Below the pieces are notes generated by a model, which searched no databases, was not told where the DNA came from, and was given only the letters and a program-made list of their open reading frames with translations. Below, in pieces: positions 11,618 through 61,616 of a DNA stretch of 64,000 nt (positions within the stretch are counted from its first letter, which is position 1; each line of letters begins with the position of its first letter). The translations under genes were made by a program, and so were the position numbers. Source of the DNA: a virus; UHGV virus genome UHGV-0167633; one strand, 5' to 3'.

Positions 11618-12691
11618 TCAAGCCTTAAGAGGCTTTGTGTATGTTCGTGTAATCCAACCAGTAATAAACTCATCCCCTGATTTAACCTGCACGTAAAGCC
11701 ATTGACGATCTTTCTTATCTAAAATAGCAACAATTGTGTTTTTGCCAATGCATTCAATCACTTCACTATTTAAAGAAGGGCCGACATGCAACCTTACGTT
11801 ATCACCTGTTATAGCTCTAAAATTATTAAGATCCTCCCACTGAATATCTTTATTTTCTTGTGTTAGCTTTTGCTTAGATATTGGCTTATCCTCATTTAGA
11901 GATAGAAGATATGATTCCATCTTGTAAATTTGCGATAATGTCTTTTCTTTTGCATAATCAGTTATAGCGCCAAGCACCACTTGATAAAAAATCCACAGAA
12001 GGAAGATCTGAATAGGAGAAGGAAGCGCCTTAAATGAATCAAAAAACGTCGAACTAGATTTATTAAATCCTTTGTTTTGATGCTCACTTTCGGTATGCGC
12101 TGATTTTATAGAATCATTAGCATAAGCCTGCGCGATAGTAACAAGCCCAAGCTCTACTACTTGCTCTAATAATACACTTCTTGTTTTATTATACTGCTTT
12201 ATTACTTCTTTAATATCTTTGCTTATCTTAATTTTGTAATTTATATTAGAGTGTAATTCTTTAAATACCTCCTCCATATTATTTAAGCCAGCTATCTTAT
12301 TAATGGCTTCTGAGTGTTTTCGTAACGGCATAGCCATTTCAGCTTGATTTTTAATTATTTGAATATGCTCATTTGCATCACTGGGAAAAGCCGCCTGATA
12401 CTGTTTCTGTAAAAATACCATTTGTTCACGAAACTGGTGTGCAATTCTCGTAACTTTTGGTAAAGACTCAAGTTCTTTTCGAAAACAATCATTAATTAAT
12501 TCTTGTTTTTTAACTGTTCCAAACTGTTTAACTAAACTCTTGTAAATATATTCTGAATTTAATAAACCACTTATCTTTTTATGCCTCACTCCTTTAATTT
12601 CATTTAAATAATCATAAAAGGCAGTGCCTTCAGCTTTATTATTAGAGTTAAGCGAAATGTGTTTAATATCCTTCACTTTATTCACCGTCAT
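11618..12691 (-). CDS. membrane protein with C-terminal SH3b-like domain (AT-rich accessory gene)
   Basis: 357-aa ORF; one predicted TM segment (IQIFLLWIFYQVVLGAI); C-terminal beta-rich segment resembling bacterial SH3; strongly AT-rich relative to flanks. Confidence 0.5.
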   Translation of the reverse strand: MTVNKVKDIKHISLNSNNKAEGTAFYDYLNEIKGVRHKKISGLLNSEYIYKSLVKQFGTVKKQELINDCFRKELESLPKVTRIAHQFREQMVFLQKQYQAAFPSDANEHIQIIKNQAEMAMPLRKHSEAINKIAGLNNMEEVFKELHSNINYKIKISKDIKEVIKQYNKTRSVLLEQVVELGLVTIAQAYANDSIKSAHTESEHQNKGFNKSSSTFFDSFKALPSPIQIFLLWIFYQVVLGAITDYAKEKTLSQIYKMESYLLSLNEDKPISKQKLTQENKDIQWEDLNNFRAITGDNVRLHVGPSLNSEVIECIGKNTIVAILDKKDRQWLYVQVKSGDEFITGWITRTYTKPLKA

Positions 12692-13184
12692 CTTGTTTTA
12701 AACACCCGTCATTTTTAGCTTCTGTATAAATACTGGAAATACCATCCAGAGTGAATGATGTGATTCGACTCGAACCGATATATACATCTATGTTTTTTTC
12801 ATTTGTAGATGACACTGCCTTCCAAAATGAATACCATTCCCTACGATTAGGAGCAGTGTTTTGCGTGCCAATATTAAAACTATCCGGGCCAACAATTAAA
12901 GTAATTACATCTGCTTTACGTGATATTGTGTCGCGTGTAGAAAAATCGGCATTCTCTTTTCCTCCGCTTACATACAAATTTCTTCCAGCGATATGATCTT
13001 CTGAACCTTCCCTTGCTCCAGCATCACAAGAAAAGTTAATTGTGTAACCATCGTCATTGGTTGCAGAGATTTCTCTCCACCCTTGCTCACCTCCTACCGT
13101 CCAAACGGTAGAACCTGCCATTGCTGATAATGGCAGAAAAGAGGACATTAATAAAAAGCTATACAATGACTTATACAATTTCAT
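12678..13184 (-). CDS. secreted protein with signal peptide (AT-rich accessory gene)
   Basis: 168-aa ORF; N-terminal signal peptide (MKLYKSLYSFLLMSSFLPLSAMA); overlaps downstream gene start by 14 nt. Confidence 0.5.
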   Translation of the reverse strand: MKLYKSLYSFLLMSSFLPLSAMAGSTVWTVGGEQGWREISATNDDGYTINFSCDAGAREGSEDHIAGRNLYVSGGKENADFSTRDTISRKADVITLIVGPDSFNIGTQNTAPNRREWYSFWKAVSSTNEKNIDVYIGSSRITSFTLDGISSIYTEAKNDGCLKQDDGE

Positions 13185-13272
13185 ATTTTTATCCTTTTGT
13201 TTTTAGATATTATAGGCATAGTCCATATTGTTAGATCCACTATGCCCAGAGAATTTAATATTATTTATTAAA

Positions 13273-13791
13273 TTATGGGGCTACACCCGGCCCCCTAGCT
13301 CGTTCTTCAAGCGTACCCTGTACGTTTTGATGGCGCATTCCTGGGGCATTTCTTATTGAGTCAATGCCATTTCTTCCAACATCTTCTTTATTAACGGCAT
13401 TGCTCGCCACCAGCACACCCCAGCTAGGGATAGCAAAATCAGGAGCGGTTTCGCATGCCTTTACCATATAATCGAAAGTGCTTCGATTGATCTCGTTTGC
13501 GTCGGGATTTAATAGGCGAGAATATTGATATTTAGCATTTTCGTTGGTTGCGACTTTATATAGTTCTTGCTGCACCATCGCTTCAGAAAGTTTAAGACGT
13601 TTCATATCTGACAGTAACTTCTTGCGCATGGATTCGTCTTGACTGACAGCAAAGCCGTAAACGTGCCCAAGGTATTTCGTATAATCGGTACAAATCTCCT
13701 TCACGCTTGATGCTGCATTAACAGTCCCAGCCATAAATAATAACGGTAGTAATAGTTTTCTCATTATAACCTCACCTGCCTTATAACTCAT
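13273..13791 (-). CDS. periplasmic protein carrying a Sit-like C-terminal motif (possible superinfection-exclusion protein)
   Basis: 172-aa ORF with signal peptide; last ~27 aa (NAPGMRHQNVQGTLEERARGPGVAP) closely match an internal Sit segment (NGRGMRREVVQGTLEERARGKGTA); occupies the position of the P1 sim locus. Confidence 0.5.
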   Translation of the reverse strand: MSYKAGEVIMRKLLLPLLFMAGTVNAASSVKEICTDYTKYLGHVYGFAVSQDESMRKKLLSDMKRLKLSEAMVQQELYKVATNENAKYQYSRLLNPDANEINRSTFDYMVKACETAPDFAIPSWGVLVASNAVNKEDVGRNGIDSIRNAPGMRHQNVQGTLEERARGPGVAP

Positions 13792-13860
13792 TTAGGGTAC
13801 ATATTTTCGCCTTTAAAAAAAAGAGGTTATTAGATCCAGTTGTGTATTTACTAATCAGAT

Positions 13861-13877
13861 AATGCTCTAATAGATTT
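13861..13877 (+). promoter_or_regulatory. C1-repressor-type operator upstream of immI (Op51-like)
   Basis: aATGCTCTAATAgATTT, 15/17 match to the ATTGCTCTAATAAATTT motif recurring in this window. Confidence 0.5.
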
Positions 13878-14044
13878 GTATTTTTAAGTCGCGAATGCTA
13901 TCTTTTCGCATCATATTGACCTTTTAATCGTTCAGGCTTATAGTTCCGCCGTCGTAGCAAATTCTGCGACCGGGTTTAGCAGCCTGAATGATTGTGCGGA
14001 CAGCCGCAGATATCCGATATTGCGGTATTTTTGTGTCCGTAAAA

Positions 14045-14175
14045 CCGCGTTACGCCCAAATTATGGTGGGGCGTGATGGGGAGGCTTCGGCCTGCTGGTT
14101 TCACAATCGCCAGTCTGCTAACCCCGTCACGTCCTGCCACCTGTTTAGCAGCGGGTAGCAGGTTGTTAAACCTGA
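14045..14175 (+). ncRNA. candidate c4-like antisense regulatory RNA
   Basis: ORF-free, densely hairpinned segment between operator and icd (CGCCC/GGGCG, GGCTTCGGCC tetraloop, CTGCTAA/TTAGCAG, CAGGTT/AACCTG adjacent to icd RBS); position as in P1 c4. Confidence 0.3.
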
Positions 14176-14191
14176 TTGTGAGGCCGTAACT

Positions 14192-14413
14192 ATGGTTAAT
14201 GCCAATCCTTGCGCGCGCCCTGAATTTATCTGGCGTTTCTATTCCTGTAAAAAACACCACTATCACTTCGTTATCGCAGCAACAGAAGACGAAGCACGCT
14301 CTCAATTGCCTGATGGCCCCTGCATTTTTACTGCCCGTTTTTCTACTGACTCGCGCAATTCACTTAGTTACTGGAACCTCCCCTTCTCTGCCGACGTTCA
14401 GGGGGGTTTATGA
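14192..14413 (+). CDS. icd: Icd-like small protein upstream of ant
   Basis: 73-aa ORF with RBS GAGG, stop overlapping ant start (ATGA); size and position as P1 icd. Confidence 0.45.
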   Translation: MVNANPCARPEFIWRFYSCKKHHYHFVIAATEDEARSQLPDGPCIFTARFSTDSRNSLSYWNLPFSADVQGGL

Positions 14414-15801
14414 AAACACCTCTCGTCACCCGTAATGAAATAGCCGAAGCGATCGCCTTGCATACAATCTGTATGCCGACACGGGAGATCCCCGGCGCAA
14501 TTGCTAACTATTTCATGATAACCAGGCGTTTTTATACCCGAACAGATAAGGCTGTGATCAACAGGCTACTGATAGCCGAGATCAGGGATTATTTGATTGA
14601 ACAAGGACGTCTACGTTACGCAACAGTGGCAGCAGAAATGAGAAAGGAGGCACATAGAATGACCAGTAATAATTTGAATGTTAAAAAACCAGAATCTGTT
14701 GCTTCAGCTACGCCATCACCAGCTGTGAATGTTATCTCCAACACTGGAGACACAATCGACAGCCAGACGCTGTTAAAGATGGTTAATGAGGCGCGCAAGC
14801 TATGTGGGGAAAATGAGATCCGTAATAACGATTTTCTCAATAGAATTAAGGATGAACTTGATGGGGAATTTTACGAAACTTTCGTAAAATCCCATGGCAC
14901 AAGGGCCGGGCGCTCTTTTGAGGTCATAACCATGACCTACAAACAAGCCCTGCGCGTTGCTGCTCGCGAATCGAAAGCGGTCCGCCGTTCGCTACATACC
15001 ATGATTCAGTCATTGGAACCTATAAATGTAGAAAATCAGCCTGATGAAATTCCCGTTCTGGAATGGCAGGGAGTACGCGTCGTGACAACCGAGACTCTTG
15101 CTAGAGGGTATGGCACTACACCTATTCGTATTCAGCAGAACTACAATCGCAATGAAGAACGATTTGTAGAGGGTAAACACTTCTTTAAAATCAAAGGAGA
15201 TGAGATAAAAAGTTTGCGACTATCTTTTAGCGAGTTGCAAATTTCCCCCAAGACCAGATCCTTAATACTCTGGACCGAACGCGGAGCGGCACGCATGTCT
15301 AAGATCGTAGACACAGAGCAAGCGTGGGCATTCTTTGAAAAACTGGAAGACAGCTACTTCCGGCAAAAAGAACAGCAACCGGTCACAATCCCCCAAACAT
15401 TACCAGAAGCTCTACGCCTGGCTGCCGAGTTGGCAGAGCAGAAAATGCAGTTGGAACAACAGCTGGTGGCCGCAGCCCCTAAAGTAGATTTTGCCGACCG
15501 GGTATCAGTGGCTAATGGAATCCTGATCGGGAACTTTGCAAAGGTCGTTGGACTTAAGCAAAACGCCCTTTTCTCATGGTTGCGCCAGAACGGCATTCTC
15601 ATGGCTTTTGGTGCGCGCAAAAACGTACCGCGCCAGCAGTACATTAACGCCGGGTATTTCACGGTGAAAGAAGTGGTGCTGGATGATGAAAATGGCTACC
15701 AGATACGGCTGACGCCCCAATTAACGGGTAAAGGCCAGCAGTGGTTAACTCGCAAGCTACTTGATGCTGGCTTGTTAAAACCGGTGGCGTCCTTGTCTTA
15801 A
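14410..15801 (+). CDS. ant: antirepressor Ant (Bro-N/KilA-C type)
   Basis: 463-aa ORF; C-terminal KilA-C-like block (DFADRVSVANGILIGNFAKVVGLKQNALFSWLRQNGIL) shared with downstream kilA paralog. Confidence 0.75.
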   Translation: MKTPLVTRNEIAEAIALHTICMPTREIPGAIANYFMITRRFYTRTDKAVINRLLIAEIRDYLIEQGRLRYATVAAEMRKEAHRMTSNNLNVKKPESVASATPSPAVNVISNTGDTIDSQTLLKMVNEARKLCGENEIRNNDFLNRIKDELDGEFYETFVKSHGTRAGRSFEVITMTYKQALRVAARESKAVRRSLHTMIQSLEPINVENQPDEIPVLEWQGVRVVTTETLARGYGTTPIRIQQNYNRNEERFVEGKHFFKIKGDEIKSLRLSFSELQISPKTRSLILWTERGAARMSKIVDTEQAWAFFEKLEDSYFRQKEQQPVTIPQTLPEALRLAAELAEQKMQLEQQLVAAAPKVDFADRVSVANGILIGNFAKVVGLKQNALFSWLRQNGILMAFGARKNVPRQQYINAGYFTVKEVVLDDENGYQIRLTPQLTGKGQQWLTRKLLDAGLLKPVASLS

Positions 15802-16039
15802 CGTATTCAGACCAGGATTTGCCATAAATTACAGGCATGTGTACGATATGCCCAACCCTGTTTTTCAGGGGAGGCGCAACGTTATGCGGGGGTTATGAAC
15901 TCCTGGATGCGTAGCCTCCAGACAGAAAAAACCCTCGCTACAACGTTGCATGGAGGCAACCAGCGAGGGCATTCCTTATGTCTGAACAACAAGAGGATAG
16001 CCGCAAGCAGTTGCTGTTGCAAGTATGCGGAGCTTCGTA

Positions 16040-16156
16040 ATGACTCTTCAAAAAGCTTGCAAGTGGATTGTGACCAACATCATTGTTCCTGTCATCATCG
16101 GAGCTTCAAGTTCTGTGTTGGCATCAGTGATTGCCTCACTTCTCCACATTGCATAA
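16040..16156 (+). CDS. candidate small hydrophobic peptide (38 aa)
   Basis: ATG with GGAG 9 nt upstream; MTLQKACKWIVTNIIVPVIIGASSSVLASVIASLLHIA; followed by intrinsic terminator. Not in ORF track (below length cutoff). Confidence 0.3.
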   Translation: MTLQKACKWIVTNIIVPVIIGASSSVLASVIASLLHIA

Positions 16157-16210
16157 CAACATTGAAGGGCGTTAGTTCGCAGTGTAACAGCAGCGCGTTG
16201 CGCCCGAACA

Positions 16211-16246
16211 GGCCACAGGGTAAAACCTGTGGCCTTTTTCGTTTTA
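16211..16246 (+). terminator. rho-independent terminator
   Basis: GGCCACAGG-GTAAAA-CCTGTGGCC followed by TTTTTCGTTTT. Confidence 0.55.
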
Positions 16247-16271
16247 TCCAGCCACAAATCCACATTGAAAA

Positions 16272-16299
16272 ACGCCTTATACAAAAAAACCTGCCAGCA
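16272..16299 (-). terminator. rho-independent terminator (minus-strand reading)
   Basis: CCTGCCAG-CAAA-CTGGCAGG; on minus strand followed by TTTTTTTGT. Confidence 0.45.
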
Positions 16300-16352
16300 A
16301 ACTGGCAGGTTTCTGAGCAGATCGACCAACCCGATCTGGATCGAGTCAGAAA

Positions 16353-16369
16353 AATTTGCTCTAATAAAT
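16353..16369 (+). promoter_or_regulatory. C1-repressor-type operator upstream of kilA (Op53-like)
   Basis: TTTGCTCTAATAAATTT, 16/17 to consensus, 70 bp upstream of kilA. Confidence 0.55.
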
Positions 16370-16440
16370 TTCGTTTTCTAAGTGCAAAGAATCACCATTC
16401 CGAGCTGGTGATTGAAGGTTGATGCAAATTTGGAGAAAAA

Positions 16441-17241
16441 ATGCAACAAACATTCAATGCAGATATGAATATATCAAACCTTCATCAAAATGTCGATCCT
16501 TCAACCACTCTGCCCGTTATTTGTGGTGTTGAAATTACGACCGACCGCGCTGGCCGTTACAACCTTAATGCTCTACACAGAGCGAGCGGACTCGGTGCCC
16601 ATAAAGCGCCAGCTCAATGGCTAAGAACGCTGTCAGCAAAACAGCTCATCGAAGAGCTTGAAAAAGAAACTATGCAGAATTGCATAGTTTCGTTCGAAGG
16701 TCGTGGCGGCGGCACTTTTGCCCATGAATTGCTCGCTGTGGAGTACGCAGGTTGGATTTCTCCCGCGTTTCGGCTGAAGGTAAACCAGACATTTATCGAC
16801 TATCGAGCCGGAAGATTACAACCAGCTATTCCGCAGAGTCTCCCTGAAGCTCTCCGTTTGGCTGCCGACCTGGCAGAGCAAAAGCAACGCCTGGAGCAAA
16901 AAATGCTTATGGATGCCCCTAAAGTCGAATTCGCCGAACGCGTTGCTACCGCCAGCGGGGTTCTAATCGGCAACTATGCCAAAGTGCTCGGCCTGGGCCA
17001 AAACTATCTCTTCACCTGGTTGCGTGATAACGGAATTCTGATCGCAACCGGTGAACGCAGGAACGTCCCCAAACAAGAATACATATCCCGTGGGTATTTC
17101 ACCCTTAAAGAAACCGTGATCGATACAAGCAACGGAAGCAGGATTTCTTTCACGACTCGTATAACCGGCAAAGGTCAGCAGTGGCTAATGAAGCGATTGC
17201 TTGATGCTGGTGTGCTGGTACCTGTCGCGGCAACGCGCTAA
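16441..17241 (+). CDS. kilA: KilA (KilA-C domain protein)
   Basis: 266-aa ORF (same length as P1 KilA); KilA-C block PKVEFAERVATASGVLIGNYAKVLGLGQNYLFTWLRDNGIL. Confidence 0.7.
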   Translation: MQQTFNADMNISNLHQNVDPSTTLPVICGVEITTDRAGRYNLNALHRASGLGAHKAPAQWLRTLSAKQLIEELEKETMQNCIVSFEGRGGGTFAHELLAVEYAGWISPAFRLKVNQTFIDYRAGRLQPAIPQSLPEALRLAADLAEQKQRLEQKMLMDAPKVEFAERVATASGVLIGNYAKVLGLGQNYLFTWLRDNGILIATGERRNVPKQEYISRGYFTLKETVIDTSNGSRISFTTRITGKGQQWLMKRLLDAGVLVPVAATR

Positions 17242-19035: not shown

Positions 19036-19217
19036 TACACCCGCTGCGGTGTGCTTGGGGCTATCAGCTTCAGGTATTACCCGAAAAGCAGATAGAAGAA
19101 AGCCCCAGTAAACATTATGCGTCCCGCACAACGCTTAACATTAACCGGGGCCATACCTATGCTTAGCGTACTTAGATTAATCCTCTCCTCTGTCAAGGAG
19201 CAAGGAATTTTTTACTG

Positions 19218-19850
19218 CTATGCCGCCTTTCCAGTTATGGATTCTGCGACAAGAACAACCCCATGCTTACTTCGATCCGGATGTTCACTCCATATCTCGG
19301 ATTCAGGAATACTTTCCCCGTCATAGCAAACACGTTCGCCGTCAAACGGGTAATACTGAGCGGCATCGGTGTCGAGGATAAACACTTTTAGCTCGGATGA
19401 GCGACGGGCGATGTGTTGCCAAAGAGCTTTTCCACCTTCGTATTGCTCATTATCACTGAGCAAAACAACACCAGCTTTTGAGGCTACGGTTTCGTAAACA
19501 AAAGTGGCTAAACCGACATCCCGGACGATTCCATCAACCACGATACCTTCAATCTGGGCAACATCGCTATCCTCCCAGAACTTCCTTACCAGTACGCCTT
19601 CAAGCTGCGGGCGACGTTGAAGTTCAAGAGTAGCGACAACCTTATGCCGCATATCACCATCGATAACAGAAGGCGCAGCCTCTATTACAGCTGCAAATGG
19701 GGTTTTGGAATCCCATATAACCTGGTAAAGCACACCCTGGATGGTAACGCCGTCCAGGATCGAAAATCGACGAGCGACAGTACCCGGGGAGTACGACATT
19801 GGAATCACAGCCATTTTAGAGTCCCCCTTTAACAGTACAGGCACAAACAT
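19218..19850 (-). CDS. hypothetical protein (own promoter region and upstream terminator)
   Basis: 210-aa ORF (likely start at MAVIPMSY); preceded by AT-rich region and bidirectional hairpin. Confidence 0.4.
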   Translation of the reverse strand: MFVPVLLKGDSKMAVIPMSYSPGTVARRFSILDGVTIQGVLYQVIWDSKTPFAAVIEAAPSVIDGDMRHKVVATLELQRRPQLEGVLVRKFWEDSDVAQIEGIVVDGIVRDVGLATFVYETVASKAGVVLLSDNEQYEGGKALWQHIARRSSELKVFILDTDAAQYYPFDGERVCYDGESIPESEIWSEHPDRSKHGVVLVAESITGKAA

Positions 19851-32427: not shown

Positions 32428-32444
32428 AAATTGCTCTAATAAAT
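32428..32444 (+). promoter_or_regulatory. C1-repressor-type operator
   Basis: ATTGCTCTAATAAATAT (16/17) upstream of the rdgC-like/dmt operon. Confidence 0.55.
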
Positions 32445-32445
32445 A

Positions 32446-32802
32446 TTGTTTTTTATGTCGTATTTTCGGTACCATTCAGCCATCGCCCTTCAATGGGCAT
32501 TTGTTTGGAGTCGTCAGATGCAGATGGAGCTAATAAGCCGCAAAGAGTTCGATAGCCGTGTAACCTGCGGTGAACTCGACAACTTGCAGGCTATCAAGGT
32601 GAAAGAAGGCTTTTGCCTCATTGGGAATCAGAGCGGAACAAATCGCGTTTTTATGCTTCGCCGTACGGATTTGAAGCCATTTGTCTGGAAGAACGAAATT
32701 GGTCCCAGCTCATACGCTCAAACGAGGGGGTGCCACAACCTGGCCTTTTTCTACAAAGACGAGCTTTCTGTGGTTGATATTCAAGGGTTACAACATGTTT
32801 AA
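32446..32802 (+). CDS. hypothetical protein
   Basis: 118-aa ORF upstream of rdgC homolog; start uncertain. Confidence 0.3.
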
Positions 32803-33700: not shown

Positions 33701-35961
33701 AAGAGCTGTGCTATGGATCTGTTTGCAGTGGAATTGAAGCCGCGAGTGTTGCCTGGGAACCGTTGGGTATGCGTCCGGCGTGGTTTGCTGAAATCGAGCC
33801 TTTTCCATCTGCCGTTCTTGCGCACCGCTGGCCCCATGTCGCCAACCTTGGCGATATGACAAAACTTGCCAAAAAAGTCCTGGCTGGGGAAATCGAATCC
33901 CCTGATGTGCTCGTCGGGGGAACACCTTGTCAGGCATTCAGTATCGCTGGATTACGTGGTGGGCTTGATGATGAGCGTGGCGCGCTAACTTTAAAGTATG
34001 TGGAGCTTGCAAATGCAATTGACGACAAACGGGCTGAGTCATTTCTCAAACCGACAGTTATCGTCTGGGAAAATGTCCCAGGAGTCCTGTCATCGGCAGA
34101 TAACGCCTTCGGATGTTTCCTTGCCGGATTGGCTGGAGAAGATGCGCCATTTGAACCAGGTGATCGACCTGAATCAGGAAAAAGTAACGCGTTCTGGCGG
34201 TGGGATGGCAAAACCGGTTGCCATGCTCCAAAGTGGCCGCAGTGTGGTTGTATTTATGGACCGCAGCGAAAGGTGGCCTGGAGAATCCTTGATGCCCAAT
34301 ACTTCGGAGTGGCACAACGACGCCGACGCGTGTTTGTTGTCGCAAGTGCTCGAACAGACCTCGATCCCGCAACGGTACTTTTTGAGTTCGAAGGCGTGCG
34401 CCGGAATATTGCGCCGAGCCGAAAAAAGAAGGAAATCGCTTCCGCCATTATTGCAAATGGCGCTGCAATCAGTGGCGAAAGCCTAAATCCATGCCTACAC
34501 GCTGACATGCCACCCGGTATGAAATCGACGAAAGCCGTAAACGCTTTCAGGATGGCAGCATTTGGGGAATATATTGACGATGAAACCGCATCGACAGTAA
34601 AGGCAAGAGATTTTAAAGATGCCACTGACCTTGCCGTTTTTAGCAGCACAGGAGCAGGTTTTTGGTCAGAAGGGCATGGTACATTGCGGGCACGTGAGCA
34701 AGAAAGCCATGAGCATCTTGTTACATTGGCTTTTCCTGAGCGTATGAGCGGTACACAACATGCTGCAACTAAGAATACTTCACCATCTCTAATGGCTAAA
34801 AATCCAACAGCTGTTTGCTATGAAGTAAGAAACGCAGAAGTAGCTGTCCGCCGTCTTACCCCTATCGAATGTGAAAGGCTGCAAGGTTTTCCTGATGGGC
34901 ATACGTTGATCCCGACGGAAAAGCGTAAAAAAGTTAATTCAGATGAACTGGCATATCTTCGCAATCACTATCCAGATTTAAGCGAAGAAGAGGCCGCGAT
35001 GTTTGCAGCTGACGGACCGCGTTACAAAGCGATCGGCAATAGTATGGCGATACCAGTAATGCGCTGGATTGGCGAGCGGATTACCAAGGCTGCATGTCGG
35101 CAGAATGAAGGGCGTGAAACAAAAGAGCGAAAAGTTAAACCTGCGGCAGAATTCGAACGGTCCATATTCAAATGGGCTGGTGGAAAATTTGGTGTTCTGG
35201 AACAAATCTTTCGCTATTTGCCAGAAGGGAAGCGCCTAATTGAACCTTTTGTCGGTGGCGGATCTGTCTTCACGAATGCCGGATACCAGGAAAATCTGCT
35301 AAATGATGTGAATGCTGACCTGATTAACTTTTACAAGACTCTGCAACGCGAGGCGCATTCACTTATCACTCTGGCACATCGTTTCTTCCAGGACTACAAC
35401 ACACAGGAAGGATACCTGGCAGTACGGAATGCGTTTAACAAACAAGTCTATGATGATTTACATCGCGCAGCGGCGTTTTTGTTCCTGAACCGACATTGTT
35501 TTAACGGATTGACGCGTTACAACCAGGCCGGTGAGTTCAATGTCGGTTATGGGAAGTATAAAACTCCGTATTTCCCATTACAGGAGATGGAAGCCTTCCT
35601 CGGTGCGGAAGGGCGGTCTGAGTTTGTATGCGGTGATTTTGCAGCGGTGATTGAAGCTGCCGGAGAAGGAGATGTCATCTTTTGCGATCCGCCGTATGAA
35701 CCGCTTCCAAATACAGAGGGATTCACGAACTATTCCGGTCATGACTTTAAGTTTGAAGAGCAAAAACGCCTGGTGTCTCTGTTGACGGATGCTCATCGTC
35801 GAGGTGCAAAGGTTCTCATTACTAACAGTGGCGCGCCAAACATCAGAGAGCTTTATCATGACAGTGGCTTCAGAGTGGAACCTCTTTTTGCCAGACGTTC
35901 TGTGTCTTGTAAGGGGGACACTCGAGGTGTAGCTCATGACGTTCTGGGCATATTGCTCTAA
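33697..35961 (+). CDS. dmt: bifunctional DNA methyltransferase (N-terminal C5-cytosine MTase fused to C-terminal Dam-type N6-adenine MTase)
   Basis: 754-aa ORF; C5-MTase motif [12 protein letters not shown] near N-terminus, ENV motif, and DPPY (CDPPYEPL) in C-terminal half. Confidence 0.85.
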
Positions 35962-35968
35962 TAAATTT
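35952..35968 (+). promoter_or_regulatory. C1-repressor-type operator (perfect 17-mer)
   Basis: ATTGCTCTAATAAATTT overlapping the dmt stop codon, upstream of the tRNA/tciA/ban region; embedded in 16-bp palindrome CTAATAAATTTATTAG. Confidence 0.6.
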
Positions 35969-36143
35969 ATTAGTGTAATATCGCCTCAATGAATCGTGAT
36001 TTATAGAGCGATTTAGCTGTTAGCCGCGACAGGCGCGGCGGCAAGTATGGCGGGGTAGTGACTCCTTCCCCATCATGACGCCGAGTTGCCAGGTTGACCA
36101 TACGCCTAAGTGGTAACACCGAAGTGCGTTACGAGCTTCCAGT

Positions 36144-36637: not shown

Positions 36638-36713
36638 GATGGTGTAGCTCAGCGGTTAGAGCGGTTGACTGTTAATCAACGGGTCGATGGTTCAAATCCA
36701 TCCACCATCGCCA
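36638..36713 (+). tRNA. tRNA-Asn (anticodon GTT)
   Basis: 76 nt; 7-bp acceptor GATGGTG/CACCATC, D-arm TAGCTCAGCGGTTAGAGC, anticodon loop CTGTTAA, T-arm GATGGTTCAAATCCATC, encoded CCA. Confidence 0.85.
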
Positions 36714-36715
36714 AT

Positions 36716-36791
36716 GCCGGTTTAGCTCAGTTGGTAGAGCGCCTGCCTTGTAAGCAGGATGTCAGCGGTTCGAGTCCGTTAATCGGCACCA
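36716..36791 (+). tRNA. tRNA-Thr (anticodon TGT)
   Basis: 76 nt; acceptor GCCGGTT/AATCGGC, anticodon loop CTTGTAA, T-loop GGTTCGAGTCC, encoded CCA. Confidence 0.85.
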
Positions 36792-38584: not shown

Positions 38585-38660
38585 GGCCCTTTAGCTCAGT
38601 GGTTAGAGCTGGCGACTCATAATCGCACGGTCACCGGTTCAAGTCCGGTAGGGGCCACCA
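38585..38660 (+). tRNA. tRNA with CAT anticodon (Ile-lysidine or Met type)
   Basis: 76 nt; acceptor GGCCCTT/AGGGGCC, anticodon loop CTCATAA, T-loop GGTTCAAGTCC, encoded CCA. Confidence 0.8.
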
Positions 38661-61528: not shown

Positions 61529-61544
61529 AATTGCTCTAATGTAT
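61528..61544 (+). promoter_or_regulatory. C1-operator-like site
   Basis: ATTGCTCTAATGTATTG (13/17) at stop of preceding gene. Confidence 0.35.
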
Positions 61545-61616
61545 TGCTATTTCTTTAATCGATGGTATTATATTCCGCGTTGATTAGTTGACATGGGCTA
61601 ATCAGTAGGTGACAGG

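Follow-up and report, generated by a model that had tools for sequence, protein, structure and literature searches.

Positions 13861-14190 of the window (the whole stretch of DNA analysed here, 64,000 nucleotides) are supported, on sequence grounds, as the immI control region of a phage-plasmid of the P1/P7 family. They almost certainly form the upstream regulatory part of the c4-icd-ant1/2 operon (immI) in a P1/P7-like phage-plasmid with P7-type specificity, and no evidence contradicting this explanation was found. An immI control region with a c4 antisense RNA, carrying the P7 allele in a P1-like phage-plasmid, is already known textbook material, and the exact sequence is already present in public databases. 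The segment extends from the first operator base to the position just before the icd start codon. It lies in a non-coding stretch of about 400 bp between a leftward ORF of 172 aa (13273-13791, - strand) and two rightward, overlapping ORFs of 73 aa (14192-14413) and 463 aa (14410-15801).

BLAST comparisons of 13800-14420 with phage records showed 98.9% identity over the full length to phage vB_EcoM-Ro157c2YLVW, 94.8% identity to phage P1, also over the full length (621 bp), and 98.2% identity to phage P7 over 13863-14420, that is, from the operator rightward. The same query matched 600 plasmid records, nearly all of which were non-mobilizable Escherichia or Salmonella plasmids of about 90-100 kb. 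These matches to phage and plasmid records indicated that the window is part of a P1/P7-like phage-plasmid. Within the query, the 266-bp block 13930-14195 was 100% identical to PLSDB plasmid records. Neither a match to the c1 repressor gene (tblastn) nor a second c4/icd copy was found within the 64-kb window.

The individual features were placed by carrying over coordinates from the curated GenBank entries for P1 (AF234173) and P7 (AF503408) through a column-by-column alignment, and were then checked in the sequence. Both records annotate the operator, both promoters, a1, b1, c4, a2, b2, icd and ant1/ant2, and their annotations of c4, the operator, the a1, b1, a2 and b2 sites, icd and ant derive from experimental work. 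The whole window was also scanned against Rfam with the curated gathering thresholds. The predicted features are as follows.

13861-13877, + strand: C1 repressor operator Op51/Oc4, AATGCTCTAATAGATTT, aligned with the annotated operators of P1 and P7
13876-13881 (-35, TTGTAT) and 13899-13904 (-10, TATCTT), + strand: promoter P2c4 (formerly P51a), transferred from the P1 annotation
13916-13944, + strand: promoter P1c4 (formerly P51b), TTGACC, 17-nt spacer, TATAGT
13938-13990, + strand: c4-a1b1 leader motif of two hairpins, with a1 in the loop of the second hairpin; Rfam RF03163
13976-13982, + strand: a1 target site, TTAGCAG, P7 type, exact complement of a'
13990-13996, + strand: b1 target site, GATTGTG, P7 type, exact complement of b'
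14004-14032, + strand: terminator-like hairpin CCGCAGATAT-CCG-ATATTGCGG followed by a U run, read from the sequence
14065-14141, + strand: c4 antisense RNA, 77-nt form, Rfam C4, transferred from the misc_RNA c4 of P1 and P7
14101-14108, + strand: b' recognition loop of c4, TCACAATC, within a hairpin loop of 9 nt
14115-14121, + strand: a' recognition segment of c4, CTGCTAA, a 7-nt single-stranded junction
14145-14151, + strand: a2 target site, TTAGCAG, matching the annotated a2 of P1
14159-14174, + strand: hairpin CAGGTT-GTTA-AACCTG between a2 and b2, a perfect inverted repeat read from the sequence
14174-14181, + strand: b2 target site, GATTGTGA, overlapping the icd Shine-Dalgarno sequence GAGG (14180-14183) and equivalent to the annotated b2 of P1
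14192-14413, + strand: icd, leader gene for ant, encoding a cell-division inhibitor of 73 aa that shares 97% identity with P7 Icd
14410-15801, + strand: ant1, regulated antirepressor, 463-aa long form, with Pfam ANT/KilAC and ORF6N domains

Taken in this order, the predicted transcript would carry a structured leader with a1 and b1, the 77-nt c4, a2 and b2, icd and the overlapping ant1/ant2. An earlier reading made from the sequence alone had proposed such an arrangement, in which icd and ant are preceded by an operator and then a c4-type antisense RNA, and had named similarity to c4 and complementarity between the RNA and the icd/ant leader as the checks. The alignments to both phages agree with it, as do the matches to the Rfam models C4 and c4-a1b1, both above the family cut-offs. 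All the elements named in that reading were found where it had placed them, well beyond what chance would give.

The 17-mer that had been described as operator-like is supported as a predicted C1-controlled operator. It is an asymmetric 17-bp site in which 15 of the 17 positions of AATGCTCTAATAGATTT match the C1 operator consensus ATTGCTCTAATAAATTT; it occupies the same alignment columns as Oc4/Op51 of P1 and Op(c4) of P7, and its position is homologous to theirs. C1-operator-like sites with at most three mismatches occur ten times in the 64-kb window, against 0.37 expected. At position 13 the operator has G instead of the A found in P1, P7 and the consensus. The same A-to-G change is present in phage vB_EcoM-Ro157c2YLVW and plasmid pRM10386-1, so the variant circulates in apparently viable elements. 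The predicted operator overlaps the -35 hexamer of P2c4, the first of two tandem sigma-70 promoters, and both hexamers of P2c4 are identical in P1, P7 and the window. The second promoter, P1c4, matched at 10 of 12 positions in a promoter scan and coincides with the annotated P1c4 of P1.

The nine other C1-operator-like sites in the window are at 16355-16371, 32430-32446, 35952-35979, 46178-46194, 49802-49867, 51943-51959 and 61530-61546. The first of these is the expected Op53 homologue, directly upstream of kilA, and 35952-35979 is an overlapping inverted pair of the bivalent type.

The c4 antisense RNA was recovered by covariance models as well as by alignment. Rfam C4 (RF01695) matched 14059-14144 on the + strand with 69.6 bits (gathering score 45, E = 1.7e-11, model positions 1-87 of 87), and Rfam c4-a1b1 (RF03163) matched 13938-13990 on the + strand with 55.5 bits (gathering score 46.7, E = 2.7e-11), again covering the model end to end. 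In the c4-a1b1 motif, which lies upstream of c4, the loop of the second hairpin, UUUAGCAG, contains a1. The c4 sequence is identical to P7 c4, and its core (14065-14141) folds with -44.9 kcal/mol (z = -5.7), an energy reached by none of 200 shuffled sequences. The minimum-energy fold has a long closing stem enclosing a tetraloop hairpin and a second hairpin, and leaves b' (RNA positions 37-44) and a' (RNA positions 51-57) unpaired. The hairpin-dense segment and the UUCG-type tetraloop stem pointed out in the sequence-only reading were thus both recovered, the latter as AGGC-UUCG-GCCU at 14082-14093 with its loop at 14086-14089. The unusual stability was confined to the c4 core, as the leader hairpins outside c4 were not energetically unusual (z between -1.0 and -1.5).

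The two unpaired segments of c4 are complementary to the sites on either side of it. The b' loop is exactly complementary to b2 over 8 nt and to b1 over 7 nt, and a' is exactly complementary to a2 and a1 over 7 nt each, in agreement with the predicted complementarity to the icd/ant leader. The target 7-mers are rare on the + strand of the 64 kb, where b occurs eight times and a six times. At all six sites the specificity is of the P7 type (a = TTAGCAG at a1, a' and a2; b = GATTGTG at b1, b' and b2), and the window carries the P7 base at every position in them that distinguishes P1 from P7 in the column-by-column alignment.

A further stem had been claimed to abut the icd ribosome-binding site. 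Such a stem can be drawn, since the perfect inverted repeat at 14159-14174 ends on the first base of b2, which itself runs into GAGG. However, it is not part of the minimum-energy fold, the energy of the a2-b2 leader is ordinary (z = -1.0), and the repeat is absent from D6-type relatives. As the stem is neither the minimum-energy structure nor kept in these relatives, a role for it is unsupported.

To examine the loop-target pairing across relatives, we aligned the window, P1, P7, D6 and seven plasmids of 87-97% identity (11 sequences). Within c4, the only variable positions were 14103-14108 (in b'), 14118-14119 (in a') and 14125 (a G-C/G-U stem pair). In all 11 relatives a1 equalled the reverse complement of a' and was the same as a2, and b1 equalled the reverse complement of b' and was the same as b2, although two a-alleles and four b-alleles were represented. 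Pairing on the named structure was found in 100% of the alignment cells, and 8 of the 14 intermolecular pairs had changes on both sides; for b1, compensatory changes occurred at six of the seven pairs. When the partner was slid by one to three columns as a control, only 32-55% of the cells paired. This covariation is the strongest independent test of the predicted pairing between the c4 loops and their targets.

The same evidence bears on whether the segment could instead encode a small protein repressor, which was the original view of c4. The segment had been called ORF-free in the sequence-only reading. Taken literally this is wrong, since the segment is crossed by mechanical ORFs of 56 aa (13988-14158, + strand), 38 aa (14073-14189, + strand) and 109 aa (13976-14305, - strand). 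The first two span the c4 segment and would be the candidate frames, and an old P1 record (GenBank X15639) still annotates c4 as a CDS. Nevertheless, none of the ORFs crossing 13861-14190 has support as coding. Among the relatives, only the two recognition segments and one stem position vary within c4, and four sites lying outside the ORFs show the matching complementary changes, a pattern expected of RNA pairing and not of coding sequence. In addition, a covariance model of RNA structure matches the segment at 69.6 bits, and the curated P1 and P7 genome records give c4 as misc_RNA. On the basis of the RNA-type covariation, the covariance-model match and the misc_RNA annotation, a protein-coding c4 was rejected, and we regard its probability as close to negligible.

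We then surveyed the allelic diversity of the system by scanning IMG/VR with the invariant c4 stem as a seed, which yielded at least 120 loci, of which 119 were parsed. Among the IMG/VR matches listed, all four targets matched the loops of their own c4 exactly in 114 of the 119 parsed loci; four of the remaining five were interrupted by a contig end, and one, of the ACGAATG type, had no exact b2. The a-alleles among these listed matches were TTAGCAG and TTGACAG, and the b-alleles were GATTGTG, GTTAGTG, ACTTACG, ACGAATG, GTACATG and ACTTGTG. Among the same listed matches, 11 of the 12 possible combinations of two a-alleles with six b-alleles were present in the 119 loci, each with a1, a' and a2 and likewise b1, b' and b2 in agreement, and the P7 pair, TTAGCAG with GATTGTG, was the commonest (30/119). 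One IMG/VR locus (L075) had a divergent c4 downstream of the seed.

These data also help to weigh the possibility that the structure is a leader or attenuator of icd/ant with no action beyond cis, or a decaying relic, so that the element would have no trans-acting RNA. In favour of it, c4 shares both strand and transcript with its targets, 14004-14032 holds a terminator-like hairpin with a U run, and the window itself gives no sign of c4 processing or stability. Against this, the sequence is identical to that of P7, in whose curated record c4 is given as an antisense RNA that acts on icd and ant, transcribed from the same promoter, and the P1 c4 RNA is termed trans-acting in the passage of PMC8546580 that deals with it. 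All sites and both downstream ORFs are intact, and 185 plasmid records carry the 266-bp block 13930-14195 with at least 99% identity, which argues against decay. The diversity of matched a- and b-alleles is the pattern expected under selection on trans specificity (heteroimmunity). We consider a purely cis-acting or decaying element very unlikely.

The leader upstream of c4 resembles a second known RNA. The Rfam model isrK (RF01394), which describes an Hfq-binding sRNA, matched 13951-14032 with 43.7 bits (E = 3e-8), beginning 7 nt past the -10 hexamer of P51b, and the leader could accordingly be read as an independent IsrK-like sRNA that ends at the hairpin and U run and titrates c4 in trans, thereby activating antirepressor translation. 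The short IsrK RNA of Gifsy-1 activates translation of the downstream antirepressor (PMC4825925), which fits the old idea that a1 and b1 are competitors, put forward by Citron and Schuster according to the PMC2864571 supplement in its account of a1/b1 and a2/b2 competing for c4. The term 'phage P1' occurs nowhere in the text of PMC4825925, which suggests that the paper draws no parallel with the P1 leader. However, the score is below the family gathering cut-off of 50, so membership of the leader in IsrK was rejected and only a resemblance is retained. Furthermore, the consensus terminator scan found no terminator in 13700-14500, including the leader region, the hairpin at 14004-14032 is weak (-8.9 kcal/mol, z = -1.2) and weaker still in P1-type sequences, and transcription of c4 must pass through the 14032 point. 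An independent sRNA at this place is thus rather improbable, and it would complement, not replace, the explanation as an immI control region.

A broader interpretation of the allele survey can be offered tentatively. The free reassortment of two a-alleles with at least six b-alleles might constitute a modular two-key RNA immunity code that defines a dozen or more heteroimmune classes. In this speculative scheme, which we think more doubtful than probable by a wide measure, the present element would combine the P7 keys with a variant operator and an ORF6N-containing Ant1, and the a1/b1 leader may be released as an IsrK-like decoy that sets the threshold of c4 repression.

Downstream of b2, the genes expected of an immI operon were found. 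The small ORF directly 3' of b2 is a homologue of P1 and P7 Icd and overlaps the start of ant1, its stop codon being shared with the ant1 start in ATGA (14410-14413); no Pfam model matched Icd. In ant1, the internal ant2 start is kept at 14659 and is preceded by the Shine-Dalgarno sequence AAGGAGG. Ant1 shares 79-84% identity with P7 Ant1 in its N- and C-terminal parts, which are separated by about 115 additional residues; an ORF6N domain (PF10543, aa 216-299) sits as an insertion after the conserved N-terminal part and before KilAC. Long forms covering at least 80% of the gene were found in 19 PLSDB plasmids (about 92% identical in those listed), and in none of the records of the phage collection.

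On the other side of the operator, three genes are located on the - strand at 11618-13791, encoding a signal-peptide protein (172 aa), a protein that looks secreted (168 aa) and an SH3-domain protein (357 aa). They occupy the place of simABC in P1 and of upf50.0/upf50.5 in P7, and pRHB25-C13_2 labels the 172-aa protein a 'simA domain protein'. About 60 bp to the left of the operator resemble P1, yet simABC is replaced, so the region is mosaic. The region 12600-16500 had no match in a single piece in PLSDB, where the best match covered 90% in two pieces.

Several other loci of the window were noted in passing. A kilA homologue of 266 aa (16441-17241, + strand) has KilA-N and KilAC domains, the C-terminal domain being paralogous to that of Ant1. 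Rfam sok, the antitoxin RNA of hok/sok, matched 19049-19222 on the + strand with 62.3 bits (gathering score 59), and the related plasmid pRM10386-1 has an annotated Hok/Gef protein downstream of its kilA homologue and two more genes. The better-known system of P1 is phd/doc. Three tRNA genes are present on the + strand (36638-36710, 36716-36788 and 38585-38657), the same number as in P1.

The likely operation of the region can be outlined from the curated GenBank annotations of P1 and P7, secondary citations and the established biology of these phages. RNase P would produce the 5' end of c4. By analogy with the P1/P7 literature, c4 would be cut out of a precursor transcript to a 77-nt form, a processing step attributed to Citron and Schuster (1992) in the part of PMC8546580 that cites them. 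The processed c4 would pair in trans with a2 and b2 and thereby block icd translation. Trans action of c4 on a2/b2, blocking translation of icd and hence expression of ant, is described in the c4 passage of PMC8546580, and the action on a2/b2 reported by Citron and Schuster (1990) is summarised in the relevant section of the PMC2864571 supplement. As in P1 and P7, ant would be coupled to icd both translationally and transcriptionally. Given this coupling, an icd left untranslated would lead to premature Rho-dependent termination within it, so that no antirepressor would be made. The C1 repressor would then stay active, and the prophage-plasmid would remain lysogenic and immune. The a1 and b1 sites are probably competing binding sites for c4. 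Identity with P7, together with the literature, points to c4 as the trans repressor of icd/ant and the determinant of immI specificity in this element. With a and b of the P7 type, the element is expected to show homoimmunity with P7 and heteroimmunity with P1 at immI.

The value of the locus as a discovery is small; it confirms the origin of the window from a P1/P7-family phage-plasmid and the presence of an intact immI secondary immunity system of P7 specificity. Annotation can profit from it, since protein-based methods overlook c4 and its target sites, which are RNA and regulatory features. They were listed in none of the plasmid records inspected, for which the PLSDB table gives protein-coding genes only. 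Recognising them allows superinfection-immunity and compatibility relationships to be predicted among the P1-like resistance-gene plasmids of Enterobacteriaceae.

Finally, we compared the region with known systems. The Rfam families C4 (RF01695) and c4-a1b1 (RF03163), both in clan CL00128, match the window end to end and above their gathering scores. These families were described by Weinberg et al. 2010 (PMC2864571). Where the supplement of that paper treats them, the C4 family most often has a UNCG tetraloop on P2, as the window does, and P1 is a seed sequence of the c4-a1b1 alignment. The leader at 13951-14032 is like IsrK of Gifsy-1 (isrK-orf45-anrP, RF01394) in having a 5' hairpin, an a1-like hairpin and a terminator hairpin with a U run, and both lie upstream of an antirepressor gene, although the window match falls below the gathering score. 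Unlike IsrK, 13951-14032 is regarded in P1/P7 biology as the 5' leader of the c4 precursor and not as an sRNA of its own.

D6 and D6-like plasmid prophages (c4-icd-antirepressor) share the c4 scaffold, and their loops and targets are matched in the same way. They differ in the b allele (ACTTACG), in the a2-b2 spacer, which lacks the CAGGTT/AACCTG hairpin, and in the antirepressor, which is Roi-like and different from that of the window; the module adjoins repL.

Phage P1 (AF234173 / NC_005856) has the same architecture, promoters, c4 scaffold and left flank of the operator. In P1 simABC is located upstream, whereas other genes are found there in the window. The P1 recognition sequences are a = TTGACAG and b = GTTAGTG, compared with TTAGCAG and GATTGTG in the window, and such differences in a/b recognition are the documented basis of P1/P7 heteroimmunity. 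The likening of the locus to P1 in the sequence-only reading therefore stands for the architecture, which is P1-like, but not for the specificity determinants, which are those of P7.

P7 (AF503408) differs from the window between the operator and the icd start at two bases only, operator position 13 (A in P7, G here) and position 13891 (A in P7). To the left of the operator, about 60 bp of the window are P1-like and not P7-like. Ant1 has 348 aa in P7 (347-348 aa in P1 and P7) against 463 aa here, with the inserted ORF6N. The c4 RNA and the a1, b1, a2 and b2 sites of P7 are all the same as in the window, Icd is 97% identical, and the gene order is the same.
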